A stretch of DNA of 13,451 bases from Byssovorax sp. (GTDB taxonomy: Bacteria; Myxococcota_A; Polyangia; Polyangiales; Polyangiaceae): the NCBI GenBank assembly GCA_046351295.1, contig JAXLYT010000035.1:1-13451 (forward strand). Direction: 5' to 3'. A program made the position numbers and the translations under genes. Positions 2,112 through 13,451 of the stretch are shown piece by piece (the stretch's first letter is position 1; each line of letters begins with the position of its first letter). The notes under the pieces are model-generated. The model saw only the letters and a program-made list of their open reading frames with translations. It did no database searches and was not told the origin of the DNA.

Positions 2112-2196
2112 CTGCCGCGGCTGCACTGACTCGCTGTCCAGCTTGACAGGCACACCGTTCCGTAGTTGGCCCCGAGCGACGGATGGATCTCGGCCC

Positions 2197-3804
2197 ATGG
2201 CGGCAAAAAAATCCAAGAAACCCAAGCAAAAGGCCCCGAAGCGTGCCGCGAAGCCGGCGCGCCCCACGACCCGCGCGGCCAAGAAGAAGGCCGTGGCGCG
2301 CGCCAAGCCGGCGGTGAAGAAGGCCGCCCCCAAGAAAGCCCCGAAGCCGAAGCGTCCGGCCGCGAAGAAGGCCGTGAAGAAGGCGGTCGTCAAGAAGGCC
2401 GCCGCGAAGAAGAAGGCCGTCGTCAAGAAGGCCGCGCCGAAAAAGGCGGCGGTGAAGAAGGGCCCGGTCAAGAAGGCCCTCGCCCGGAAGCCCGCGCCCA
2501 AGGCGCCGGTGAAGAAGGCGGCCCCGAAGAAGGCTGAAAAGCCCGCCAAGAAGGCCCTCAAGAAGGCCGAAAAGCCGGTCAAGAAGGCCCCGAAGGCCGA
2601 AAAGCCGGTCAAGAAGGCCGAGAAGCTCGTCGAGAAGGCTTCGAAGAAGGCTGAAAAGCCGGCGAAGAAGGCCGAGAAGGTCGTCGAGAAGGCCCCGAAG
2701 AAGGTCGAGGTGCCGGCCAAGAAGGGGGCGCTCGCCAAGGCGCCGCCTTCGAAGCCGGTCGCGCCGCCTTCGAAGAAAGGGCTGCCGGAGGCCCGGCCGT
2801 CGGCGGGCAAGCGGCCCGTCCCGGCGCCGCCCGTCTCGGCCCCGAAGAAGAGCAGCCCCGGCAAGGAAGCGCCGCCCGCCAGGCGGAGCGACCGGCCCAT
2901 GGAGGCCGCGGGGAAGAAGCGCAGCTCGGCGCCGCCTCCGCCCGCCAAGGGCGGCAAGAAGGGGGCGCCCCTCGCTCCCGTGCGCGAGCCCCCGCCTCGC
3001 CTCGTCACCCTGCCCCTGCCCACGCTCCAGGCGCCCAAACGCCCCAGCGTGGAAGAGCGCTCGGCGTCGATCGAGAAGCGCCTCGCCGGCCAGACGGACG
3101 ACTTCCGCAAGCGCTACCTCGACAGCCTCGATATGTCGTGGATTTACCACGACAGCGCGCTCGAAGGGACCGTCTACACCTTCGAAGAGCTGCGCGCCGG
3201 CTTCTCCGGCCAGCCCCAGCCCATCACCGACTCGAACCTCCAGCCGACCTTCGAGGACATCCGGCGGCACAAGGAGGCCATCGAGTACGTCCGCGATTTC
3301 GGCGAGAAAAAGCGGCTCCCCGTCACGGTCGACGTGATCAAGAAGATCTACCTCATCCTCCACCCGGAGGAGGGCGACATCAAGACCGTGAAGTACCGGA
3401 AGGACATCCCCCAGCATCGCCTCTACTTCCACGAGTACGCCCCGCCGGACAAGATCGCCTACAAAGTCCGGCAAATCGTGGACTGGCTGAACGACCCGGA
3501 GACGCGCAAGACGCGCAACGGCATCCGCATCGCCGCCCGCGCGCACTACGATCTGCTCCGCGTCTACCCCTTCCCCACCGACAGCGGGAAGACGGCGCGC
3601 CTGTTCATGAACTTGCTGCTGCTGCGGAGCGGATTGCCGCCGGCGATCCTCCACTCCACGGAGCGGCAGCGCTACTACGAGGCCCTGAAGGGCTCGGCCA
3701 CCACGGTGCTCCAGATGGTGCAAGAGGCGGTGGAGAACGCCCTCTCCAGCGTCGAAAAGCTCCTCGATGAGCACGAAACGAAGAAGCGCGCCTTCGTCTC
3801 CTGA
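2197..3804 (+). CDS. Fusion protein: N-terminal histone H1-like Lys/Ala/Pro-repeat (AKKA/KKAEKPVKKA) domain joined to a C-terminal Fic/Doc-family domain with a degenerate active-site motif
   Basis: A single 535-codon frame opens at ATG 2197; the track extends it upstream to TTG 2143. Residues 1 to ~290 are K/A/P-rich repeats of the histone H1 / Hc1 / AlgP type, encoded by AAG-rich near-tandem 33-36-nt nucleotide repeats around 2530-2700. The C-terminal ~230 aa carry Fic-fold signatures. SWIYHDSALEGTVYT resembles Fic 'iyhSnaIEGN'. HYDLLRVYPFPTDSGKTARLFMNLLLLRSGLPPAIL aligns to HPFx(D/E)GNGRxxRLlmnllLlraGyPp, but with His->Tyr, D->T, G->D, N->S and R->K. This is followed by ERQRYYEAL. The stop is TGA at 3802-3804. 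Confidence 0.75.
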   Translation: MAAKKSKKPKQKAPKRAAKPARPTTRAAKKKAVARAKPAVKKAAPKKAPKPKRPAAKKAVKKAVVKKAAAKKKAVVKKAAPKKAAVKKGPVKKALARKPAPKAPVKKAAPKKAEKPAKKALKKAEKPVKKAPKAEKPVKKAEKLVEKASKKAEKPAKKAEKVVEKAPKKVEVPAKKGALAKAPPSKPVAPPSKKGLPEARPSAGKRPVPAPPVSAPKKSSPGKEAPPARRSDRPMEAAGKKRSSAPPPPAKGGKKGAPLAPVREPPPRLVTLPLPTLQAPKRPSVEERSASIEKRLAGQTDDFRKRYLDSLDMSWIYHDSALEGTVYTFEELRAGFSGQPQPITDSNLQPTFEDIRRHKEAIEYVRDFGEKKRLPVTVDVIKKIYLILHPEEGDIKTVKYRKDIPQHRLYFHEYAPPDKIAYKVRQIVDWLNDPETRKTRNGIRIAARAHYDLLRVYPFPTDSGKTARLFMNLLLLRSGLPPAILHSTERQRYYEALKGSATTVLQMVQEAVENALSSVEKLLDEHETKKRAFVS

Positions 3805-4603
3805 GCGCCGCGGCCCTCGCGCCGCGGCCCCAACCGCGCGCGTGAGCAAGCGGAAGACGGTTGCGTCGTCCGCGGCGACCACCGGTGCTTCCAGCCGTCG
3901 TCCCAGGCGAGCCAAGCCGGCCCCGAAGAATCGGCCCCGGGACGAGGCGCGGCCGACCTATGCGCGCCTGCGCCTCCTGTACCCCGACGCCCATTGCGAG
4001 CTCATCCACGCGGACTCGTTCACGCTCCTCGTGTCGACGGTCCTCAGCGCGCAGACGACGGACGTCCTCGTCAACAAGGTCACCCCCCACCTGTTCGCGC
4101 GCTGGCCCACCGCCAAGGCCCTCGGCGCGGCCGATCCTTCCGACGTCGCCGCCCTCCTCGCCGAGCGCGGGATGGGCATGTACAACCAGAAGGCGAAGAA
4201 CATCGTCGGCCTGAGCCGTCTCTTGATGGAGAAGCACGGCGGCCATGTCCCCCGCACCCTGGCCGAGCTCGTCGAGCTGCCCGGCGTCGGCCGGAAGACG
4301 GCCAACGTCGTCCTCGGCGTCGCCTTCGGGATGCCCGAGGGCGTCGTCGTCGACACCCATGTCCAGCGCCTGAGCCAGCGCCTCGGCTGGACGAAGCAGA
4401 CGGAGCCGGGGCCGATCGAGCAAGACCTGTGCGCCCTCTTCCCCCGCGAAGACTGGGACATGCTCTCCCACACGCTCATCTTTCATGGCCGCCGCACCTG
4501 CACGGCCCTTCGCCCGGCGTGTGCGGCGTGTGGTGTGAATGACGCGTGCCCGAGCGCCTTCAAGGCCGAAAACGTGGGCCGAAAGAAAGGGCGAGTCCGG
4601 TGA
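3767..4603 (+). CDS. nth: Endonuclease III (DNA-(apurinic or apyrimidinic site) lyase / thymine glycol glycosylase)
   Basis: The HhH-GPD motif is LVELPGVGRKTANVVL, with its catalytic Lys. The conserved Asp is in VVVDTHVQRL. A C-terminal [4Fe-4S] ligand set C-x6-C-x2-C-x5-C is present (CTALRPACAACGVNDAC). The protein is colinear with E. coli Nth from RPTYARLRLLYPDAHCEL onward. If ATG 3767 is the start there is a ~60-aa basic N-terminal extension and a 38-nt overlap with the upstream gene. GTG 3842 is an alternative start. Neither has a clear SD. Confidence 0.9.
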   Translation: MSTKRRSAPSSPERRGPRAAAPTARVSKRKTVASSAATTGASSRRPRRAKPAPKNRPRDEARPTYARLRLLYPDAHCELIHADSFTLLVSTVLSAQTTDVLVNKVTPHLFARWPTAKALGAADPSDVAALLAERGMGMYNQKAKNIVGLSRLLMEKHGGHVPRTLAELVELPGVGRKTANVVLGVAFGMPEGVVVDTHVQRLSQRLGWTKQTEPGPIEQDLCALFPREDWDMLSHTLIFHGRRTCTALRPACAACGVNDACPSAFKAENVGRKKGRVR

Positions 4604-4752
4604 TGTGCCGCTGCCCCGGCCATCCCGCCGACGGATCAGCACAACAAACAGCACCGCGACCGGTAGGGAGCGGACCGAGCAGGCATTACCTGCAAGGAAG
4701 CAACCACGTCGAGAGCCGAGGCCAAGTCGCTCGCGGATCGGCCTGGGCGGGG

Positions 4753-4870
4753 CGGTGCTTGCGGGTGGCGTGGGAGATGACGGGGGCCGGTGGCTGCGCG
4801 GTCCGCTCCCTGCCGGTCGCGGTGCTGTTCCTGGTGGCGTGGGAGATGACGGGGGCCGGTGGCTGTGCGG
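4753..4870. repeat. Two copies of a ~50-bp direct repeat (CGGTGCT..GGTGGCGTGGGAGATGACGGGGGCCGGTGGCTGyGCGG) in the uvrA leader
   Basis: The copies at 4753-4801 and 4818-4870 are near-identical over ~38 bp at their 3' ends, with a period of ~67 bp. They end 20 bp before the uvrA ATG. No LexA-type palindrome was recognised within them. Confidence 0.7.
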
Positions 4871-4893
4871 GGGGGGTGGGTGAGGTTTTATGA
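4777..4893 (+). CDS. Possible 38-aa upstream ORF / leader peptide (MTGAGGCAVRSLPVAVLFLVAWEMTGAGGCAGGVGEVL) whose stop overlaps the uvrA start as ATGA
   Basis: It is in frame with the track ORF 4546..4893. Third codon positions are nearly all G/C. The TGA at 4891-4893 overlaps the uvrA ATG at 4890-4892. The peptide repeats the WEMTGAGGCA motif because it spans the DNA direct repeat. It has no good SD, since GGGAG directly abuts the ATG, so the call is speculative. Confidence 0.2.
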   Translation: MTGAGGCAVRSLPVAVLFLVAWEMTGAGGCAGGVGEVL

Positions 4894-7775
4894 AACGGTC
4901 GTCTCTGCGTCGTGTGGCTGCGAAGGAGCCGGATTTCATCGAGGTGATTGGCTCGAAGGAGCACAACCTCGCGATCGAGCACCTCGAGATACCCAAGAGG
5001 CAGCTCGTGGTGTTCACGGGGGTCAGCGGGTCGGGCAAGTCGAGCCTCGCGTTCGATACGCTCTATGCCGAGGGGCAGCGGCGGTATGTCGAGACGCTGA
5101 GCGCGTATGCCCGGCAGTTCCTCGGGCAGCTCGAACGGCCGCATGTCGACCACCTGCGGGGGCTTTCGCCGACGATCGCCATCGAGCAGAAGAGCGCGTC
5201 GGGCAACCCCCGGTCGACGGTGGGCACCATCACGGAGATCTACGATTATCTCCGCGTGCTCTATGCCCGCGTGGGCGAGCAGTATTGCCACCTCTGCGGG
5301 GAGAAGGTCACGGCCCAGAGCTCGGACCAGATCGTCAAGGAGATCCAGGCCCTTCCCCAGGGCACGAAGCTCACGATGGTGGCGCCCCTCGTCAGCCATC
5401 GGAAGGGCGAGTTTCGCGATCTGTTCGAGGAATTGCGCGGTCGAGGCTTTGCGCGGGTCGTCGTCAACGATGTGACCTACAAGCTCGATGAGGTGCCGAA
5501 GCTCGACAAGAAGAAGAAGCACACCATCTGGCTCGTGGCCGATCGGATCACCGTCTCTCCGGAGGATCGCGGGCGCATCGCCGAGAGCGTCGAGGTCGCG
5601 CTCAAGGAGGGCAAGGGCGAGATGCGCGCGCTCTTCAGCGACGGCAAGCGCGAGCCCTTGGTGTTCAGCGAGCTGCGCACCCACTGCGGGCACAGCTTCC
5701 CGGCCCTCTCGCCGCAGAGCTTCTCGTTCAACAGCCCGCTCGGCATGTGCAGCGAGTGCAACGGCCTCGGCACAAGGCTCGAGGTCGATCCCGAGCTCAT
5801 CGTCCCCGATCCTTCGCTGTCCATCCGTGACGGCGCCATCGCCCCGTGGGCGTCGGGCATGGCCCGCGGCGAGGGGTGGACGTTCCGCATCGCCGACGCC
5901 GTGGCCAAGGCATGCGCCGTCAAGCTCGACACGCCCTGGAACAAGCTCCCCAAGTCGAAGCAGGACCGGGTGCTCTACGGCCTCGAAGGCGAGCGGATCA
6001 GCGTCCAGTGGGGCAAGGAAGGGTCGGAGAGCCATGGCACCTTCGGGATGCGCTTCGAGGGCGTGATCCCGAACCTGATGCGCCGCTATCGCGACACCAC
6101 CTCCGAGCAGGCCCGCGAGCACTACCGCGTCTTCATGAGCGAGCGCCGCTGCGACACCTGCGGCGGCAAGCGCCTGCGCCCCGAGACGCTGGCCGTGAAG
6201 CTCGCGAAGAAGAGCATCGCCGATGTCACCGCCTTCACCGTGCGCGAGGCGGCGGCACACATGGCCTCGCTCGGCCTCGAAGGCGCCCAGCAGACGATCG
6301 CCGCCGGCGCGCTGCGGGAGATCGAGGCGCGCCTCTCGTTCTTGCTCAACGTCGGCCTCGATTACCTCACCCTCGAACGCAGCGTGCCCAGCTTGAGCGG
6401 CGGTGAGGCCCAGCGCATCCGCCTCGCGAGCCAGCTCGGGAGCGAGCTCTCGGGCGTGATGTACGTGCTCGACGAGCCGAGCATCGGCCTGCACCAGCGG
6501 GACAACCAGCGCTTGATCGAGACCTTGCGCCGCCTGCGCGATCTCGGCAACAGCGTCGTGGTCGTCGAGCACGACGAGGAGACCATCCGCGCGGCCGATC
6601 ACCTCGTCGATTTCGGCCCGGGCGCCGGCCACCTCGGCGGCAAGGTCATGTACAGCGGCCCCCCCGAGGGCATCGAGAAGGATCCGACGAGCCTGACGGG
6701 GGCCTACCTCTCGGGGAAGAAGAAGATCGATCTGCCCAGCTCGCGCCGCACCGCCAAGGGAGCGCTCAGCATCCTCGGCGCCCGGGAGCACAACCTCAAG
6801 AACATCGATGTTCGCTTCCCGCTCGGCGTGCTCACCGCCGTCACCGGCGTGAGCGGCGCCGGCAAGAGCTCGCTCGTCAATGGCATCCTCCTGCCGGCCC
6901 TCGGCAAGGCGCTTTATCAAGCCAAGGACCCGGTGGGCGCCCACCGCCGCATCGATGGGCTCGACTCCATCGACAAGGCCATCGCCATCGATCAGAAGCC
7001 CATCGGCCGCACCCCGCGATCGAACCCCGGCACGTACACCAAGGCCTTCGACCTCATCCGCGACATCTTCGCCGAGCTGCCCGAGTCCCGCGCGCGGGGC
7101 TTCAATGGCGGGCGATTCTCCTTCAACGTCAAGGGAGGACGCTGCGAGTCGTGCCACGGCGACGGCGTGGTCAAGGTGGAGATGCACTTCCTCGCCGACG
7201 TGTACGTGCCCTGCGAGGTGTGCGAGGGAAAGCGCTACAACGCCCAGACCTTGAGCGTGCGCTTCAAGGGCAAGAACATCGCCGAGGTGCTCGACTCGAG
7301 CGTCGATGATTGCCTGGCGATGTTCTCCTCGTTCCCTGCCCTCCGGCGCGTCCTTCAAACCCTCTCCGACGTGGGCCTCGGCTACATGAAGATCGGCCAG
7401 AGCGCGCCCACGATGAGCGGCGGCGAGGCCCAGCGGGTGAAGCTCTCGCGCGAGCTCGGCAAGACGCAGACGGGCAAGACGTTCTACGTGCTCGACGAGC
7501 CGACGACGGGCCTGCACTTCGAGGACATCCACAAGCTCCTCCTCGTGCTGCAAAGGCTCGTGGACGCCGGCAACTCCGTGGTGGTGATCGAGCACAACCT
7601 CGATGTCATCAAGTGCGCCGACTGGATCATCGACCTCGGCCCCGAGGGCGGCGGAGGCGGCGGGCGGATCATCGCCGAGGGGACGCCCGAGCAGGTGGCG
7701 AAGGTCGAGGGCTCGTACACCGGGCAATTCCTCGCGCCGCTGCTCGGAAGGAAGCGGGGGCGCGCGGCGAGCTGA
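4890..7775 (+). CDS. uvrA: Excinuclease ABC subunit A
   Basis: 961 aa with two ABC ATPase modules. The Walker A motifs are GVSGSGKSSLAF and GVSGAGKSSLV. The ABC signatures are LSGGEAQRIRLA and MSGGEAQRVKLS. The Walker B motifs are YVLDEPS and YVLDEPT. The Cys pairs of the UvrA zinc modules are CHLCGEK, CSECNGLG, CDTCGGKR, CESCHGDG and CEVCEGKRY. The SD is GAGG 4-5 nt before the ATG. The frame is uninterrupted. Confidence 0.97.
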   Translation: MKRSSLRRVAAKEPDFIEVIGSKEHNLAIEHLEIPKRQLVVFTGVSGSGKSSLAFDTLYAEGQRRYVETLSAYARQFLGQLERPHVDHLRGLSPTIAIEQKSASGNPRSTVGTITEIYDYLRVLYARVGEQYCHLCGEKVTAQSSDQIVKEIQALPQGTKLTMVAPLVSHRKGEFRDLFEELRGRGFARVVVNDVTYKLDEVPKLDKKKKHTIWLVADRITVSPEDRGRIAESVEVALKEGKGEMRALFSDGKREPLVFSELRTHCGHSFPALSPQSFSFNSPLGMCSECNGLGTRLEVDPELIVPDPSLSIRDGAIAPWASGMARGEGWTFRIADAVAKACAVKLDTPWNKLPKSKQDRVLYGLEGERISVQWGKEGSESHGTFGMRFEGVIPNLMRRYRDTTSEQAREHYRVFMSERRCDTCGGKRLRPETLAVKLAKKSIADVTAFTVREAAAHMASLGLEGAQQTIAAGALREIEARLSFLLNVGLDYLTLERSVPSLSGGEAQRIRLASQLGSELSGVMYVLDEPSIGLHQRDNQRLIETLRRLRDLGNSVVVVEHDEETIRAADHLVDFGPGAGHLGGKVMYSGPPEGIEKDPTSLTGAYLSGKKKIDLPSSRRTAKGALSILGAREHNLKNIDVRFPLGVLTAVTGVSGAGKSSLVNGILLPALGKALYQAKDPVGAHRRIDGLDSIDKAIAIDQKPIGRTPRSNPGTYTKAFDLIRDIFAELPESRARGFNGGRFSFNVKGGRCESCHGDGVVKVEMHFLADVYVPCEVCEGKRYNAQTLSVRFKGKNIAEVLDSSVDDCLAMFSSFPALRRVLQTLSDVGLGYMKIGQSAPTMSGGEAQRVKLSRELGKTQTGKTFYVLDEPTTGLHFEDIHKLLLVLQRLVDAGNSVVVIEHNLDVIKCADWIIDLGPEGGGGGGRIIAEGTPEQVAKVEGSYTGQFLAPLLGRKRGRAAS

Positions 7776-7791
7776 GGGCGGCGCGCGGGCG

Positions 7792-7825
7792 GGGCCCGGC
7801 CTTGCGGTCGACCTCGGGCCGGGCG
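7792..7825 (+). terminator. GC-rich hairpin (GCCCGGCC ... GGCCGGGC, 16-nt loop containing GGTCGACC) downstream of uvrA, with a weak T-tract (CGTTTTG) 8 nt later
   Basis: The inverted repeat is 7794-7801 against 7817-7824. The U-tract is neither immediately adjacent nor long, so this is at best a weak intrinsic terminator or an RNA-stabilising stem-loop. Confidence 0.3.
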
Positions 7826-7860
7826 TAGGATCGTTTTGCGCTCCAGCCAGGAGGGCGACG

Positions 7861-8712
7861 ATGCGAACAAGACGGTGGGTGCTCCTCTCCACGGCGGCGA
7901 TCGCGCTGGGGCTCTCGGCCGGACCCCGGGCGACGGCCCAGATCCGGGACAGCGAGGTGCTCGGGCCATCCCTGTCTCCAGGGAAGGTGAAGCTCACGTG
8001 CCGGGGGATGGGGGCCACCAACATGATGGATTGCGCGTTCCAGCTCGACCCGGGCAGGAAGCAAGCCACTGCCCCCCGTCACGATCCGTGTCGATCCAGG
8101 CACGCTCGCCTATGCCTCCGATCACGCCGCCGCAGAACATGGTCGTCGGCGGCGTGGAGGGCCGGCTCACGGATGGGTTCGGCGTCCTCGCGCCGCCTCT
8201 GGGAGACGGCCCGCCCGCGCTCCTCGCGTCCCCGTTGCCCGGGCGCCGCCGCTTCAGGCCGGATGATCAGCGTCGTCCCGAGCCCGGTGATCACGGTGTC
8301 GAGCACGACGCCTGTCCACTACGTGCTCGGGGTGTACTGCGCCGAGTTCGAGAAGGACAACCCCTCTTCGGACGTGACCTTCACCTTCGGCAAGGTCGAT
8401 CCGGTGCTGGCATGCATCACCGAGACGGCCGCGCGCTTCGAGGGCCGGACCATCCAGGCCGCGGTGTGGATCAAGACGGACTTCCGGGACGTGGAGCCGG
8501 CGCTCGCCCACAAGACCATCGACAAGAAATACCCGCTGTCCAACCGGGAGGGGCGGACGCGCTCGGCGTCGCGGGTGAGCTGCGGCGTCCTCGGGAAAGA
8601 GGCCGTGAACGCCCTCCCCGAGGCGGATGCCGCGGCCTCTCCGGCGTCTCGGATGCCGCCTCCCCTGCCGCCCGGGGGCTGCTGCGGAGGCCCCTCCGCG
8701 GCGGCGCGATGA
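7861..8712 (+). CDS. Secreted hypothetical protein (signal peptide MRTRRWVLLSTAAIALGLSAGPRATA|Q); frame integrity questionable in the middle third
   Basis: SD GGAGGG lies 5 nt before ATG 7861, which opens a typical Sec signal peptide. The frame with codon starts = 1 mod 3 looks coding at 7861 to ~8060 and from ~8290 to 8712. The downstream stretch reads PVHYVLGVYCAEFEKDNPSSDVTFTFGKVDPVLACITETAARFEGRTIQAAVWIKTDFRDVEPALAHKTIDKKYPLS. Between ~8062 and ~8135 that frame turns Arg/Ser-rich (RHDPCRSRHARLCLRSRRRR) and its third positions fall mainly on A/T. Between ~8140 and 8270 the position-specific GC pattern, with the second codon position lowest, fits the 0 mod 3 frame better (MPPITPPQNMVVGGVEGRLTDGFGVLAPPLGDGPP...). 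I recognised no family. Confidence 0.4.
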   Translation: MRTRRWVLLSTAAIALGLSAGPRATAQIRDSEVLGPSLSPGKVKLTCRGMGATNMMDCAFQLDPGRKQATAPRHDPCRSRHARLCLRSRRRRTWSSAAWRAGSRMGSASSRRLWETARPRSSRPRCPGAAASGRMISVVPSPVITVSSTTPVHYVLGVYCAEFEKDNPSSDVTFTFGKVDPVLACITETAARFEGRTIQAAVWIKTDFRDVEPALAHKTIDKKYPLSNREGRTRSASRVSCGVLGKEAVNALPEADAAASPASRMPPPLPPGGCCGGPSAAAR

Positions 8713-8715
8713 TGG

Positions 8716-10968
8716 ATGTCTCGCCGAGGCGACAGCCCTGAAGACCTCCTCTCGCGCGGGCGCGCGGCGCTCCGGCAGGGCCGCGCCGAGGAGGCGCGCG
8801 CGGCGTTCGAGGCGGTCCTCCGCCTGCGCCCGACCCTCGCGGAGGGCCACCTCGGGCTCGGCCGGGCGCTTGTCCGGCTGGTCGTGATCGAGGCGGCGCG
8901 CTCATCTTCTTCCAGCGCGCCGCGCGCCTCGGCGCGGAGAGCGCGCGCCTGTCGTTCGAGGCCTTGCCGGAGGCCCCGCCCCGCCGGGATTTCACGATCG
9001 GGCAGTCGATCCGGGGCGAGGCCACGGGCATTCGCTACACGGTGCGCGACATCAGGCGCGGGACGTTCGGCGCCGTCTACCTGGTCGACGACGACCGGAG
9101 CGCGCCCCATGCCCTCAAGACCTTCCAGGCTCGCCATTCGTGGAGCGACGACGATCGCCGCCGCTTCGAGCGGAGGCGCTCACCTGGGTCAACCTGGATC
9201 ACCACCCTCATATCGTCTGGGCCAGGTGGATGGAGGTCATCGAAGGGTTCTTGTGCCTCGTGCTCGAGCAGGTGCCCGGCGGCGATCTCGGAGGGCTCCT
9301 GGCCGCCCGAGGCCCTTTGCCCGCGGGCCGGGCGCTCTCGCTCGCCCTCGATCTCTGCGACGCGATGGCCCATGCCCATGATCGATCCGGCGTCGTCCAC
9401 CGGGACATCAAGCCGTCGAACTGCCTGCTGACCGTCGAGGGGCGCCTGAAGATCGGCGATTTCGGCCTCGCCCGCGCCTTCGGCGAGAGGGGCCATGGCC
9501 CCGGCGCCGCCCCGACCGGCGAGCCCTGCTCGACCACGCCGGCCGGATCGCTCCCGTACATGGCCCCGGAGCAGCACGACCGCGCGGCCATCCTCGACAC
9601 GCGCGCGGACATCCACGCGCTCGGCGTGATGCTCTACGAGATGCTCACGGGCGATCGCCCCCTCTCGGGCAGCAGGGCAGAGGCCCATGTCCTCGCCGGC
9701 GCCGCGCGGCGCTCGATCCCTCCCGCGCTCGCAGACGCCTTGCTCCACCTCGTCGCTCGATCCCCGGCCGATCGCCCGCCCGATTTCGATCGAGCGAGGG
9801 AGATGCTCACCCCCATCGCCGCCGCGCTCGGGGCCCGCCCGGCGCCGCGGGCGAAGGCGATCGTCATGGGCCCCGACGATCTGAAGAACAAGGCCATCGC
9901 GCTCGTCGCCCTCCGCCGCGACGAGGAGGCGCTCGCCTGCTTCGAGGAGGCGCTCGCGCGCTCGCCGGACGACGCCGCCCTCTGGAAGGGCGCCGGCGTG
10001 GCCCACCACGCCCTCGGCCGCTACACGGAGGCGCTCCGCTGCCACCGCAGGGGCCTCGCGATCGCCCCCGGTGACCCGGGGCTGTGGAACAACATGAGCC
10101 TCACGGAGCGCGCGCTCGGCAATGTGGACGCCGCCCTGGCATGCTGCGCAGAGGGGCTTTCGCGCGCGCCCCGCGATCCGAAGCTGCTCGGCAACCAGGG
10201 TGAGCTGCTGCACTCGAGAGACGATCTCGCCGGGGCGCTCTCTTGCTACGACGCCGCCTTGGCCGTCGTGCCGGGCGACACCGACCTGGAGGGGAAGAGG
10301 GGGTATGTGCTGCTCGACCTCGGCCGCCACGAGGAGGCCGGAGCATGCTTTGAAGCGGCGCTCGCCGTCACGCCGCGCAGCGCCGCGCTGTGGCGAGGCC
10401 TCGGCGCCGCGTGGCACCGGCGCGGCGCCTGCGAGCAGGCCGTCCGCTGCTACCGCTACGCCGCCGAGATCGATCCTCGTAGGGCCGATGTCCACCGGAT
10501 GCTCGGCCAGGCCCTGCTCTCGATCGGACGGCCCGAAGAGGCCCTCGCCGCGCTCGAGCAGGCCATCGATGTCTCTGCCTCCGATCGCGAAGCCCACGTG
10601 GCGATGGCCGCGGCGCTGAGCGTCCTCGGCCGCCTCGAAGAGGCCTGCGCGCGCTCATGCGCGCCACGCCGATCTCGGCCCGCCGGACGAGGACCTGTGC
10701 CTCGGGGCCGTGCTCCACCGGCTCGGGCGGCTGGAAGAGGCGCTGCGCTGGTCGGCGCGAGGGGCGGCCCTCGCGCCGGCCAACCCCTGGTTGCAGGAGA
10801 ACCTCGGTCATATCCCTGACCGCGCTCGGCCGGCTCGACGAGGCGCTGGCCGAGATCGAGCGAGGGGCCGAGATCGACCCGGACAACGCGGGGATACGGG
10901 AGCTGCGAGCCCGGCTGCTCGAACGCCTGGGCAAGGCCGATGAAGCGATGGATCGACGGCAGCGCTGA
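8716..10968 (+). pseudogene. Ser/Thr protein kinase (Hanks type) with one N-terminal and ~10 C-terminal TPR repeats, interrupted by at least four single-nucleotide frameshifts; either an authentic pseudogene or indel errors in the sequence
   Basis: Coding segments occupy different frames. (a) 8716 to ~8895, frame 1 mod 3: MSRRGDSPEDLLSRGRAALRQGRAEEARAAFEAVLRLRPTLAEGHLGLGRAL (TPR). (b) ~8895 to 9172, frame 0: ALIFFQRAARLGAES...DFTIGQSIRGEATGIRYTVRDIRRGTFGAVYLVDDDRSAPHALKTF...DDDRRRFER (Gly-loop and VAIK Lys). (c) 9173 to ~10650, frame 2: EALTWVNLDHHPHIV...HRDIKPSNCLL...DFGLAR...YMAPEQ, then about 10 TPRs. (d) ~10660 to 10810, frame 0: DEDLCLGAVLHRLGRLEEALRWSARGAALAPANPWLQENLG. (e) ~10815 to 10968, frame 1: SLTALGRLDEALAEIERGAEIDPDNAGIRELRARLLERLGKADEAMDRRQR. 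At 9171-9176 the sequence reads CGGAGG; restoring one G (CGGGAGG) gives FEREALTWVNLDH, so one G appears to be missing there. The start codon is 4 nt after the stop of the upstream gene (TGAtggATG). Confidence 0.7.
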
Positions 10969-10978
10969 CACCGCGCGC

Positions 10979-11266
10979 TCAACGGGCGGGCGGCCGGAGG
11001 CTCACGTCTCCCACGTCACCCAGGAACGCAGCCCAGGGATAAGGGTGCTCTCCGCACCCGAGGATCCTCGGCTCGCGTTCCTCCGCCGCATGCCTGCGAC
11101 ACCACGCGACGAGCCTCTTGCTCGACCCATCGAAGGTGAAGAGGACGACCGGCCGATCCAGCGTCGTCTGCCAGCCTTCCCACACCCCCACATGATCCCG
11201 CTCGTGCTGGAGCTGAATGAGGACGAATTGATCCCCGATCCGATCGCCGGTCGAAGGGCTCTTCAT
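10979..11266 (-). CDS. Hypothetical 95-aa protein (MKSPSTGDRIGDQFVLIQLQHERDHVGVWEGWQTTLDRPVVLFTFDGSSKRLVAWCRRHAAEEREPRILGCGEHPYPWAAFLGDVGDVSLRPPAR)
   Basis: A strong RBS, AGGAGG, lies 6 nt upstream of the ATG (complement of 11264-11266). The start overlaps the stop of the upstream TonB-like gene as ATGA, which indicates translational coupling. The track's 130-aa version, starting at 11371, has an Arg-rich N-terminus that overlaps the upstream gene and is implausible. A competing frame (track 11002..11193) has similar GC3 over the last ~25 codons, so the C-terminus is uncertain. I recognised no family. The gene converges on the kinase gene with a 10-bp gap. Confidence 0.5.
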   Translation of the reverse strand: MKSPSTGDRIGDQFVLIQLQHERDHVGVWEGWQTTLDRPVVLFTFDGSSKRLVAWCRRHAAEEREPRILGCGEHPYPWAAFLGDVGDVSLRPPAR

Positions 11267-12102
11267 GGCTGACCTCCTGCGTAGAGGTTGATGGAGAACG
11301 GGAGATTGACGATCACGCTCTGGCCGCCGAACGGCGCCACGCGCGCCGCCGCGAACGCGCTCGCGAGGCACCTGCGCCCGGGCCCGAAGAACGGCCCCTG
11401 GAGCCCCACGGAGACGGCCTTGCCGCTGGACGGCCGGAACGTGACCCTCGCGCTGCCATGCCCGGCGGCGCCGTCGAGCACCTTGCAGCGCCGCGCGGCC
11501 CCCAGGGCGCGCGCCATGGCCTGACCGGCGCGCTCGGTCGTCAGCTCGGCCTCGACCCGGGCCGCCGGGGGGCGAAGCGCCGGCGCCGGGCTCACGGGCG
11601 CGTCCTTCGCGCTCACGGGCGCGTCCTTCGCGCTCGCGGGCGCGTCCTCGGGCGCGCTCGTCTCGGCGCTCGGCTTCCTCTCCAACACGGCCGGAGCGCC
11701 GATGTCCACGGGCTCGGGCGCGGCGCGCGCCGCCTCTTCTGAAGCCTCGCGCGGCCTTTCCAGCTCATGACGGCTGGTCGCGCGAGCGGCCATGGAGACC
11801 GGCGAGGCGACGAGCCAGACGATGAGCGAGAGCACCTGCGCGGTGGCGACGAAGGCGCCGAGGAGCAGGGCGATCTCTGCCCGGCGGATCGGCCTCGGCG
11901 CGGGCGCCTCGCCGCCCTTCAGCTGGGCCAGGAGCCAGTGCTCTTCGAGCCCTCCCTTGAGGTTCTCGATCTCGATCAGCGTGTTGCGCCCCCGGACGCC
12001 CGCGAAACCTCCGGGCGGCGCGGTGGGACCGCGGCCGGCATGCGAGCCTCTGCGCGAGCCATCCAGGTGATGCTCCTCCGCCTGTGTCGGGTGCATGGAC
12101 AT
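11263..12102 (-). CDS. Membrane-anchored protein with a TonB_C-like / myxobacterial AgmX-PglI-type C-terminal domain; the layout is an N-terminal cytoplasmic segment, one TM helix, a Pro/Ala-rich linker and a Cys-containing C-terminal domain
   Basis: 279 codons from the ATG at the complement of 12100-12102. The RBS GGAGAGGAGGAG lies directly upstream, and a second ATG 6 nt downstream is an alternative start. The predicted TM helix is IALLLGAFVATAQVLSLIVWLVA. The linker carries (S)AKDAPV 7-aa tandem repeats. The C-terminal domain reads AELTTERAGQAMARALGAARRCKVLDGAAGHGSARVTFRPSSGKAVSVGLQGPFFGPGRRCLASAFAAARVAPFGGQSVIVNLPFSI. It contains the two-Cys pattern of the myxobacterial AgmX/PglI-type C-terminal domain, and the stretch G..ARVTFRP.SGKAVSV...CL..AFAAARVAPF resembles the periplasmic C-terminal domain of TonB. 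The part of the track ORF 11263..12630 upstream of 12102 is antisense to the bEBP gene and Arg-rich, so I reject it. Confidence 0.55.
   Translation of the reverse strand: MSMHPTQAEEHHLDGSRRGSHAGRGPTAPPGGFAGVRGRNTLIEIENLKGGLEEHWLLAQLKGGEAPAPRPIRRAEIALLLGAFVATAQVLSLIVWLVASPVSMAARATSRHELERPREASEEAARAAPEPVDIGAPAVLERKPSAETSAPEDAPASAKDAPVSAKDAPVSPAPALRPPAARVEAELTTERAGQAMARALGAARRCKVLDGAAGHGSARVTFRPSSGKAVSVGLQGPFFGPGRRCLASAFAAARVAPFGGQSVIVNLPFSINLYAGGQP
11591..11653. repeat. 21-bp tandem repeat x3 (CTCACGGGCGCGTCCTTCGCG) inside the linker of the TonB-like gene, encoding AKDAPVS heptad repeats
   Basis: Two perfect copies lie at 11591-11611 and 11612-11632, followed by a degenerate third copy. The repeats keep the reading frame, since 21 is divisible by 3. 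Confidence 0.6.
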
Positions 12103-12220
12103 ACTCCTCCTCTCCGGCCGGAACGAGGTCCGCGCGCGCCGGCATACCCGCTCACCTCGCCGGTGAGCGCTGCCTCGGCGCCGGTCGGTGTCTCGGCTGC
12201 TCCAGCCTGTCGAGGGCATG

Positions 12221-12236: not shown

Positions 12237-12309
12237 CGCGCCATGGCGCCGGCCAATGGCTGAAAACAAGCCTGTCCAGCGCGCGGGCGCACCCCCGGAC
12301 GGGCCCTCC

Positions 12310-12389
12310 TGCGCATCTGCGCAATTGCGCGAGCGCGCGATCCGCGGCGATCGCGGCCCCTTGCGCGCCCTTGCGCGCCGCGCGATCCT
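12310..12389. promoter_or_regulatory. Cluster of GC-rich palindromes and short tandem repeats, a candidate enhancer (UAS) / operator region between the sigma-54 promoter and the bEBP gene
   Basis: Three tandem TGCGCRnn octamers lie at 12310-12333. They include the perfect 12-bp palindrome GCGCAATTGCGC at 12319-12330. An imperfect palindrome CGCGATC-CGCGGC-GATCGCG lies at 12336-12355. The tandem 10-mer CCTTGCGCGC occurs twice at 12358-12377, and GCGCGATCC is repeated at 12335 and 12380. The cluster lies 75-170 bp upstream of the -24/-12 element, which is the usual distance for bEBP binding sites. Confidence 0.35.
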
Positions 12390-12417
12390 TCCGCCTTGCA
12401 GGTAAGGAGACAACGTG

Positions 12418-13451
12418 ATGGTCAGCTCGACCCAGCTCGACGATACGAAGCGCGTCTCGATGGAGCAGGCCCTGGCCGAGGCGGCGAACCTCGCGCTGCT
12501 CATCCATCACCCGCGCGGCGCCCAGGCGATCCCGCTCTGGCCGGGCCGGACGGTGGTGGTGGGGCGCGAGCCCGACGGCTCGGAGGACGATTTCGTCGAG
12601 ATCCCCGACGACTCCGTCTCGAAGCGGCATGCCAGGTTCTTCGCCGGCGAGGGCCGGGTGCTCGTCAGGGATCTCGGCTCCACGAACGGGACCCGCGTCG
12701 GGACAACGCTGCTCCAGGGCGGAGACCCCGTGCGCATCGAGGTCGGAACAACCATGTTCCTCGGCAAGGTGTTCGCGGCCCTCGTGGTGGCGAGCTGCGA
12801 CGCCGCGAGCCTGGACGACGATGCCGCCGCGGCATCATCCCTCTCGCCCGTGGCGGCGAGCGGCCCGATGAAGGCCCTCATCGAGGACATCAGGCCCATC
12901 GAGCCCGTCTCGTCGCCGGTGCTCCTCCTCGGCGAGACCGGGACGGGCAAGGAGGTGCTCGCCCACTTCATCCACCGCACGAGCCGACGGCGGAACGCGC
13001 GCTTCGTCGCGGTCAACTGCGGCGCCATCCCGGCGGCGCTCGCCGAGAGCGAGCTCTTCGGCCACGTGAAGGGCGCGTTCACCGGCGCGATCGATCGCAG
13101 AGGGGTCTTCGAGGTCGCCTCGGGCGGCACGCTCTTCCTCGACGAGATCGGAGACCTCCCGCTCGACCTCCAGGTCAAGCTGCTCCGCGTCCTGCAAGAG
13201 GGCGTCGTCCGGCGCGTCGGCAGCAACGAGGACAGGCCGGTCGACGTCCGTCTCGTCTCGGCCACCCACCGCGACCTCTCGAAGATGGTCGCCAAGGGCG
13301 GGTTTCGGGAAGACCTTTATTACCGGATCAACATCATCGATTTCCACATTCCCCCGCTCCGCGACAGGAGAGACGATATCCCCCCGCTCGCCCGGCGCCT
13401 GCTCCGGACCCTGAGCCAGAAGGCCGGCCGGACGATCGGCGCGATCGACGC
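12418..13451 (+). CDS. Sigma-54-dependent transcriptional activator (bacterial enhancer-binding protein) with an N-terminal FHA domain; 3' end lies beyond the window
   Basis: SD AAGGAG at 12404-12409 lies 8 nt before ATG 12418, and GTG 12415 is an alternative start. The FHA domain is [12 protein letters not shown]...[28 protein letters not shown]. The sigma-54 AAA+ domain has Walker [15 protein letters not shown]. The GAFTGA motif sits in [15 protein letters not shown]. The Walker B motif is [27 protein letters not shown]. The frame is uninterrupted to the window end, and the gene is missing from the ORF track because it has no stop within the window. Confidence 0.9.

Follow-up and report, generated by a model that had tools for sequence, protein, structure and literature searches.

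The question raised by this locus is whether the repeated changes of reading frame in two adjacent genes mark a dying operon, a faulty consensus sequence or an unusual way of decoding. The window, which is the whole 13,451-nt stretch of DNA analysed here, comes from an NCBI metagenome-assembled genome (MAG) of Byssovorax sp., and the frame breaks were read in the deposited consensus. Seven one-base breaks were found in all, three in a gene for a secreted protein and four in a kinase gene that starts 3 nt after it (Table 1). The first-pass annotation had suggested a comparison with intact homologues; carried out frame by frame with family profiles, it placed breaks in both genes and demonstrated that both ORFs are disrupted relative to their homologues. 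Single-base edits mend all seven breaks, with five bases extra and two missing. Once repaired, the kinase gene and the secreted-protein gene are each a single ORF without stops, of 750 and 282 aa, and align over their full length with intact homologues; their scores against the family profiles increase from 494 to 683 bits and from 98 to 124 bits, respectively.

Table 1 Features of the gene pair, in window coordinates
Feature	Position	Strand	Description
Secreted-protein gene	7861-8712	+	AGGAGG ribosome-binding site at 7849-7854; signal peptide MRTRRWVLLSTAAIALGLSAGPRATA
Break S1	8072-8077	+	Extra C in C6 run; frame 1 to frame 2
Break S2	within 8105-8132	+	One base too many; frame 2 to frame 0
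Extra stretch of ~88 nt	8178-8262	+	In no homologue; separates profile positions 96 and 99 by 94 nt
Break S3	~8232-8262	+	+1, back to frame 1; inside the ~88-nt stretch; Viterbi switch at 8255
C-terminal part of secreted protein	8263-8712	+	Frame 1; family motifs YCAEFEKDNPS and QAAVW..TD
149-aa record P0262	matches the 8263-8712 part	+	Sole part of the secreted-protein gene with a public protein record
TPR / Hanks-type Ser/Thr kinase / TPR gene	8716-10968	+	Five frame segments; 750 aa after four one-base repairs
Break K1	8896-8903	+	Frame 1 to frame 0, within GCGCGCTC; base missing or GC unit extra
559-aa ORF, MFO0759184.1	9140-10819	+	Deposited as 'serine/threonine-protein kinase'
Break K2	9171-9176	+	CGGAGG instead of CGGGAGG; frame 0 to frame 2, within invariant FEREAL motif
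Break K3	10650-10660	+	Base extra in GCGCGCTCATGCG; frame 2 to frame 0
Break K4	10811-10816	+	ATCCCTG instead of ATCCTG; frame 0 to frame 1

The kinase gene is split within its catalytic domain

Four frame changes, placed by the first-pass annotation at about 8895, 9172, 10655 and 10810, were recovered by three approaches that concur. Viterbi segmentation, with codon usage learned from the flanking genes and a switch penalty of 15 bits, gave codon starts (mod 3) of 1 (8716-8890), 0 (8891-9170), 2 (9171-10653), 0 (10654-10805) and 1 (10806-10968). When the three forward frames were searched with a profile built from eight intact kinase homologues, matches were obtained in frame 1 at 8740-8979, frame 0 at 8934-9176, frame 2 at 9170-10651, frame 0 at 10704-10811 and frame 1 at 10813-10953. 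The GC3 plot agreed with this segmentation. The CGGAGG noted earlier at K2 is present, and the addition of one G yields ...RRRFEREALTWVNLDHHPHIV, rejoining a stretch whose F, E, R, E, A and W are shared without exception by the eight homologues; we take the FEREAL motif to be helix alpha-C from its position in the kinase fold. With the N-lobe as far as FER in the other frame at 9172, K2 parts the Gly-loop and the ALK lysine (the VAIK lysine of the first-pass annotation, which had described the same split) from the HRD/DFG/APE core. The 559-aa ORF matches Pkinase (PF00069) at model positions 48-204 (E 1e-30) and lacks the first 47 positions, which are encoded upstream in frame 0, while in the profile of the eight TPR-kinase homologues, distinct from PF00069, positions 93-175 fall in frame 0 and positions 174-671 in frame 2. 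The whole Hanks-type kinase domain with its catalytic residues is thus present, yet not in one uninterrupted ORF, and the repaired protein keeps GTFGAV, HALK, FEREAL, VHRDIKPSN, GDFG and YMAPE in alignment with the homologues. Private changes at otherwise invariant columns of the kinase domain number 16-17, and 21-22 in the intact outgroups P0008 and P0013.

The TPR repeats form tandem 34-residue units (TPR_1 and TPR_2 matches, E 1e-33), which recur in the DNA every 102 nt exactly, save at two breaks, where the unit measures 97 nt (96 + 1) at K3 and 103 nt (102 + 1) at K4. Repair of K3 brings S-A-R-x-A-x-L-x-P into register with the next TPR unit; a deletion of 5 nt or 2 nt was also considered there, but the alignment of TPR units favours +1 with a shorter in-frame loop. 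On the plus strand, GCGCTCA occurs at only three sites in the pair, each at a kinase break, although shared motifs at the breaks were set aside as weak and post hoc.

The secreted-protein gene carries three breaks

The upstream gene had been called less clear, with a suspect stretch at about 8062-8135. Family alignments instead show three breaks and a longer out-of-frame stretch, so that the entire two-gene unit is affected. Frame 1 is open throughout the gene, and the ancestral frame departs from it between about 8075 and 8262, crossing first into frame 2, which encodes PVTIRVDPGTLAYASD, and then into frame 0, which encodes QNMVVGGVEGRLTDG; both peptides align to conserved blocks of the family. 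S1 lies in the longest homopolymer within the pair according to a homopolymer census and was recognized from the distance between the conserved RG.G and PGT blocks, which is 100 nt (33 codons + 1); removal of one C gives ...QATAPVTIRVDPGT. At S2, 28 nt separate the T of PGT from the Q of QNM, both of them invariant, where homologues have 9 residues. The extra stretch that contains S3 probably encodes, in frame 0, a loop rich in Pro, Ala and Gly that is specific to this lineage. A repeat, mobile insert or hairpin was also considered and set aside, as the stretch occurs once in the window and its predicted folding is no stronger than that of shuffled sequences. An additional Viterbi switch at about 8630, in the non-conserved tail, was left out of the break count.

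The secreted protein belongs to an uncharacterised family of ~200 aa that is not in Pfam or NCBIfam. It has the lowest profile score in the family, reads GATNMMD in place of an otherwise universal SSG motif, and carries four private changes at invariant columns, compared with 0-2 in other members. The loss of SSG and these four changes hint at relaxed constraint on the protein. Thioester domains (TEDs) of Gram-positive surface adhesins (PMC4450167), in which a Cys and a Gln are placed to form a thioester, were considered as a possible counterpart of the family.

S2 and S3 were located to an interval, and the run context is given here for S1 and K1-K4: S1 is the only break in a run of at least 5 nt, and K1-K4 lie at runs of 2-3 nt or at a (GC)3 tract. 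A phase-variable contingency locus is not supported, as the located junctions hold no long simple-sequence tract beyond the six-nt run at S1. No in-frame stop was found in any ancestral frame, no larger deletion was found in the pair, and GC3 and codon bias remain high in the ancestral frame of every segment. Leave-one-out profile scores were discarded as a measure of decay, being confounded by close relatives among the homologues.

Intact homologues form a conserved two-gene unit

An intact kinase-TPR gene is immediately preceded, on the same strand, by an intact gene for a homologue of the secreted protein in three unrelated metagenome contigs; no secreted family member was seen upstream of Pkinase-TPR in a fourth locus, L084. 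Judged from gene order and predicted domains, a secreted protein and a cytoplasmic TPR / Ser/Thr kinase / TPR protein are a conserved two-gene unit. We found no description of this pairing. The repaired kinase is 35-47% identical across its length to intact homologues of 625-938 aa. Like Hanks-type kinase-TPR proteins of the PknG type (PF00069 plus TPR families), it has a full Pkinase domain followed by about nine 34-residue TPR units, but unlike them it has an additional N-terminal TPR pair and a consistent pairing with an upstream secreted protein. PknG also carries a rubredoxin-like module; none came to light incidentally in the domain scan. The idea of a defence-system kinase was rejected, because PD-T4-6 and mad6 (PADLOC, queried with the homologue P0002) match the generic kinase domain only.

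The flanking genes are intact

The earlier statement that uvrA, nth, Fic and the bEBP are free of frame breaks holds. In the same Viterbi test, uvrA and the bEBP showed no frame switch, and Fic and nth switched solely at their 5' ends (2213 and 3910), leaving the ORFs unbroken. Fic, nth and uvrA each gave one long tblastn segment against orthologous loci with 88% identical UvrA, Fic having an additional short match at its variable N-terminus, and in comparisons of uvrA with three orthologues no garbled stretch recurred against more than one. Two further apparent frame changes were dismissed, one at about 12300-12500 being the start of the plus-strand FHA-bEBP and the other at about 11050 being one minus-strand ORF. 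The flanking coding sequence verified to be without frame errors amounts to about 6 kb and includes homopolymers of 7 and 8 nt. Under a uniform distribution of breaks over the 9.2 kb of coding sequence that was checked, the chance of all seven landing in the 3.1-kb pair is 5e-4. Synteny is broken at the pair: L082 and L083, the two loci closest by UvrA (88% identical), share Fic-nth-uvrA and do not have the pair, and therefore provide no direct comparator.

Origin of the breaks

The segments could be separate small genes with a split kinase, and the 559-aa and 149-aa pieces are indeed listed as proteins in the source annotation, but the alignments refute this. The junction at 9172 falls within the invariant FEREAL motif of the kinase N-lobe, those at 10655 and 10813 fall within single TPR units, and those of the first gene fall between conserved blocks of what is confidently predicted to be a single domain in the intact homologue P0244 (pLDDT 90.6). 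Orthologues had been named as the place where separate genes might come to light; each homologue examined is a single ORF, of 625-938 aa for the kinase and ~200-340 aa for the secreted protein. Programmed frame changes, in which ribosomal frameshifting or transcript slippage would yield full-length proteins, are effectively refuted. Solely the net shift of 0 mod 3 in each gene speaks for them, and the first-pass annotation had held such sums to be unexpected. Four random ±1 shifts, however, give 0 mod 3 in 6 of 16 cases (37.5%) and three do so in 2 of 8 (25%), and the return of the kinase to frame 1 is without translational meaning because the frame-1 ORF from 8716 stops at 9381; the argument carries no weight. 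Neither -1 junction has an X XXY YYZ heptamer within ~25 nt, the +1 junctions have no stop codon or long A/T run, the window has no Rfam match, and with seven sites in 2.7 kb the multiplied yield would be negligible; the eight homologues in the alignment, like the genes of the three syntenic pairs, are single ORFs. Among the explanations offered earlier, pseudogenes and local low-quality sequence stand, whereas 'something odder' falls for want of a heptamer or Rfam match and in view of the single-ORF homologues.

With in-frame stops absent, the catalytic motifs kept and no surplus of changes at conserved kinase sites, the breaks must be artefacts or else of very recent origin, and an artefact or a young dead operon is in either case ordinary. 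We lean slightly, short of a decision, towards an error made locally in the consensus calling or polishing of the metagenome assembly, and rate a genuine operon that was recently pseudogenised as almost equally likely. In the latter case, one gene of an accessory pair would have been lost and both would have drifted with one-base slippage mutations, over a time too short for stops or large deletions to accumulate or for codon bias to fade. Recent pseudogenisation would fit the restriction of the breaks to the two-gene unit beside clean neighbours, the position at a synteny break, break contexts that deviate from the homopolymer-error model, the low-scoring secreted protein without SSG, and a 114-kb contig that is not obviously a noisy long-read assembly; if the breaks are real, the pair would be another signalling module in decay, in a myxobacterial genome rich in kinases. 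Like known frameshifted bacterial pseudogenes, the pair shows several one-base indels in recognisable accessory ORFs with intact homologues elsewhere, but the indels are unusually many (at least seven) and here known from the consensus alone, and nonsense codons, larger deletions and excess substitutions are absent. In mutation-accumulation studies, neutral indels are accompanied by about ten times as many substitutions. By our own estimate, seven independent neutral indels should therefore have come with a substitution excess and ~1.6 stops; neither is seen, which favours an artefact, and the retained catalytic motifs and undiminished codon bias also argue against decay. Consensus error is further consistent with the MAG source, the single representative of the locus in the collections searched, the single-base lesions of both signs and the functional look of the genes once repaired, as in other MAG consensus and polishing errors. 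Unlike those errors, the breaks here are independent of homopolymer length and spare the adjacent 6 kb. Because the flanks are clean even at runs of 7-8 nt and just one break out of seven falls in a run of at least 5 nt, homopolymer errors of the sequencing platform do not by themselves explain the pattern, and some special cause local to the pair must be assumed. Given its position at a synteny break, the pair may be strain-variable and thinly or heterogeneously covered; such a coverage or strain-mixture problem is a postulate here, under which the organism would hold an intact, functional pair and the 149-aa and 559-aa proteins would be annotation fragments. Against consensus error stand the lack of a close paralogue that could confuse read mapping, the confinement of the breaks to one operon and the hint of relaxed constraint in the secreted protein. 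It is improbable that the seven indels are real and arose in one localised burst, for example by error-prone repair synthesis over a single 3-kb tract, although such a burst would explain many indels with almost no substitutions and sharp boundaries; GCGCTCA would then mark a slippage-prone context.

Deposited records and the intact pairs

The source annotation of the pair consists of the 149-aa and 559-aa fragments only, so the public record holds a kinase without its ATP-binding lobe and a fragment of its partner protein. Such truncated entries are passed on to catalogues built from MAGs of this kind, and the chief consequence of the breaks is for annotation. A second copy of the locus was not found in the genome, metagenome and protein collections searched. 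In the metagenome scan, the exact DNA around the 9172 break gave no match with either G count, and the best match to the kinase core was 41%. Among the matches listed for the repaired kinase against genome contigs, the best were 36-39% and an orthologue was absent; the closest other protein is 47% identical. A by-product of this analysis is perhaps more useful than the frameshifts, namely an unclassified secreted family found repeatedly beside a TPR/kinase/TPR gene in unrelated bacteria. The pair could be studied in intact copies such as L085 (339 + 742 aa), L086 (336 + 778 aa) and L087 (208 + 664 aa).

Layout of the window and deposited records

The layout of the window, whose G+C content is about 70%, was derived from composition-filtered ORFs and Pfam matches. 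NCBI protein MFO0759182.1 is identical to the UvrA of the window. Across the shared portion of the stitched query, MFO0759184.1 ("MAG: ... [Byssovorax sp.]") matches the kinase ORF of 559 aa, and one 114,297-bp contig encodes both proteins.

Features of the window and of metagenome contigs with an intact pair
Sequence	Feature	Position	Strand
Window	Gene running off left end	3-722	-
Window	Small ORF	752-1114	-
Window	Repeat-rich spacer	about 1100-2100	
Window	Lys/Ala-rich protein with Fic domain	2143-3804	+
Window	nth	about 3767-4600	+
Window	uvrA	4890-7775	+
Window	Secreted-protein gene and kinase gene (pair)	7861-10968	+
Window	Secreted-protein gene	7861-8712	
Window	GCGCTCA/break coincidences	8896-8905, 9176-9182, 10649-10658	+
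Window	Two ORFs	10979-11269 and 11266-12111	-
Window	FHA / sigma-54 activator (bEBP)	about 12451 to window end	+
L085	Pair	6001-9316	
L086	Pair	2149-5556	
L087	Pair	5001-7630	

Seven single-base breaks in the pair

GC3 sliding windows, a codon log-odds track and Viterbi segmentation agreed on a frame path of 1 > 0 > 2 > 0 > 1 through the kinase gene, with switches at 8890/91, 9170/71, 10653/54 and 10805/06, and a profile of eight homologues gave matches in the three forward frames that adjoin one another in the order expected, which bears out the path proposed in the first-pass annotation. The stitched translation retrieved intact homologues of 625-938 aa with 35-47% identity. In their alignment, IEAAR followed by LIFFQRA bridges the first junction, and WSD.DR.RFEREALTWV, the majority of whose residues are invariant, is continuous across the 9172 junction, in agreement with the earlier proposal that an added G at about 9172 rejoins the kinase. 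The spacing of TPR units is exactly 102 nt, except for 97 nt at 10616-10712 and 103 nt at 10713-10815; TPR-unit alignment indicated one surplus base and an in-frame loop shorter by two residues near 10657, and one surplus C at 10813-10815. Four single-base edits (one base added near 8901, a G added at 9173, and deletions at 10657 and 10815) yielded a stop-free kinase of 750 aa and raised the profile score from 494 to 683 bits.

All three plus-strand GCGCTCA sites within the pair lie at the first three kinase breaks, and the 10-mer GCGCGCTCAT was found at the first and third only. The coincidence is weak and was noted post hoc, with permutation p values of about 0.01-0.1; motif copies within uvrA are unbroken, and the first and third breaks are similar in part because both sit at the same TPR-unit position.

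The upstream secreted-protein gene, in which a break had been considered less clear, contains three. The stitched query retrieved 21 homologues, mostly hypothetical proteins of about 200 aa; with the in-frame C-terminal part as query, 127 were retrieved in an exhaustive search. Conserved family blocks lie first in frame 1 (7903-8019), then in frame 2 (PVTIRVDPGT, about 8078-8104), then in frame 0 (QNMVVGGVEG, 8130-8174) and finally back in frame 1 (8269-8547). The distances in nucleotides between invariant residues indicated one surplus base in the C6 run at 8072-8077 and another within 8105-8132, and about 88 nt separate profile positions 96 and 99, a stretch that we read as a putative loop of about 29 residues that is specific to the lineage and carries the third +1. 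Three single-base deletions gave a stop-free protein of 282 aa and raised the score from 98 to 124 bits. The protein record in the public collection (P0262, 100% identical) covers the last 149 aa only. In the non-conserved tail of the gene (8630-8741), codon statistics favour frame 0, which would reach a TGA at 8739-8741 overlapping the kinase start; the pair may carry an eighth break here.

In each gene the shifts add up to 0 mod 3. For the kinase, such a sum had been regarded as unexpected from errors or decay, but random shifts would produce it in 37.5% of cases for the kinase and in 25% for the secreted-protein gene. For the kinase the zero net shift is without consequence, since the frame-1 ORF ends at 9381. 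In the secreted-protein gene, frame 1 is uninterrupted over the whole length of the gene, and therefore translation could in principle yield a product of 283 aa, of which about 63 internal residues would be scrambled.

Breaks are confined to the pair

As the first-pass annotation had stated, the flanking genes are free of breaks. Viterbi segmentation gave zero switches in uvrA and bEBP, and the Fic and nth controls switched at their 5' ends only, without breaking an ORF. The loci whose UvrA is closest (88% identical) have Fic-nth-uvrA in common with the window, each gene aligning as one long tblastn segment, with an additional short match at the variable N-terminus of Fic; no garbled stretch of uvrA recurred against more than one orthologue. 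Downstream of uvrA these loci have other genes, so the pair sits at a synteny break. Were seven breaks distributed uniformly, the probability of finding all of them within the pair would be 5e-4; the break rate is 2.25 per kb in the pair against an upper 95% bound of 0.5 per kb in the flanks. The clean flanks include homopolymers of 7 and 8 nt, and only one of the seven breaks falls in a run of at least 5.

Cause of the breaks

Since the flanks, with their 7- and 8-nt homopolymers, are clean, uniform platform error was excluded. Programmed frameshifting was also rejected: there are no slippery sites and no RNA element, and the homologues are single ORFs. Nor are the segments genuinely separate genes, because the junctions fall inside the FEREAL motif, inside single TPR units and inside a domain whose prediction in the intact homologue P0244 is confident.

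The breaks would then stem either from a local problem with the consensus or from pseudogenes that are real and young. We lean slightly towards a consensus artefact: the lesions are exclusively single-base, there are zero stop codons, the catalytic motifs of the kinase are intact, codon bias is undiminished, and private changes at conserved kinase columns show no excess (16-17, compared with 21-22 in intact outgroups). True pseudogenes are a serious possibility, though one we would not call probable; consistent with them, the breaks are restricted to one accessory operon, a close paralogue able to confuse mapping is absent, the break contexts lack homopolymer drive, and in the secreted protein the SSG motif present throughout the family is missing and private changes are mildly in excess. 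The genome and metagenome collections searched (for the genome scan, among the matches listed) yielded no second copy of the locus. Any other cause is very improbable. The original observation is real and stronger than first stated, and its first interpretation is partly right; the locus is an ordinary, conserved secreted-protein/kinase-TPR pair in a copy broken in silico or in vivo.

The pair as a conserved unit

In three metagenome contigs from different sources (L085, with a G+C content of 51%, L086 and L087), an intact secreted-protein homologue lies directly 5' of an intact Pkinase-TPR gene; at another locus, L084, the kinase is absent. The two genes form a unit. The family, whose genes repeatedly lie immediately 5' of one for a TPR / Ser/Thr kinase / TPR protein, shares the motifs [GA]SSGD, QNMV, YC[AT][ED]FEKDNPS and QAAVW..TD. 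It has no Pfam entry, and NCBIfam gave a sub-threshold match for one member only. For P0244, AlphaFold gave a confident model (pLDDT 90.6). YC[AT][ED] and QAAVW resemble published motifs of the thioester domains of Gram-positive adhesins (PMC4450167), but the likeness in structure and motif is weak and is taken as a lead only; neither Foldseek nor a sequence profile supported it.

Other features of the window

In a stretch of weak coding signal 5' of the Fic gene (1606-1892), a 43-nt unit is repeated in tandem about six times, and a G/C-rich palindrome with the appearance of REP-type hairpins occurs twice (CCCCTCCCCGC...GCGGGGAGGGGC; 1172-1201 and 1273-1302). In the nth-uvrA spacer (4640-4870), a 43-nt direct repeat has copies at 4759-4801 and 4828-4870 that are 93% identical, and a 46-nt inverted repeat has arms at 4640-4685 and 4791-4836 that are 87% complementary, suggesting a structured region just 5' of uvrA. 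The N-terminal ~200 aa of the Fic-domain protein (2143-2800) consist of Lys/Ala/Pro repeats (AKKAAPKK...) resembling histone H1 and are largely unmatched in the two closest loci. In one of these, L083, from the related MAG GCA_964269635.1, the Fic homologue matches at its N-terminus in two different frames at 7489-7766, where two genes of 141 and 400 aa were called; this assembly may itself carry a frameshift there. The left-end gene has no Pfam match and reads ...GGYHVVH at the window edge, a sequence that resembles the beginning of CHAT-type protease domains.

Only 10 nt separate the kinase stop from that of the convergent minus-strand ORF (10966-10981), leaving no room for a terminator. Neither minus-strand ORF has a family match; the two overlap start to stop (11263-11269), which suggests translational coupling.
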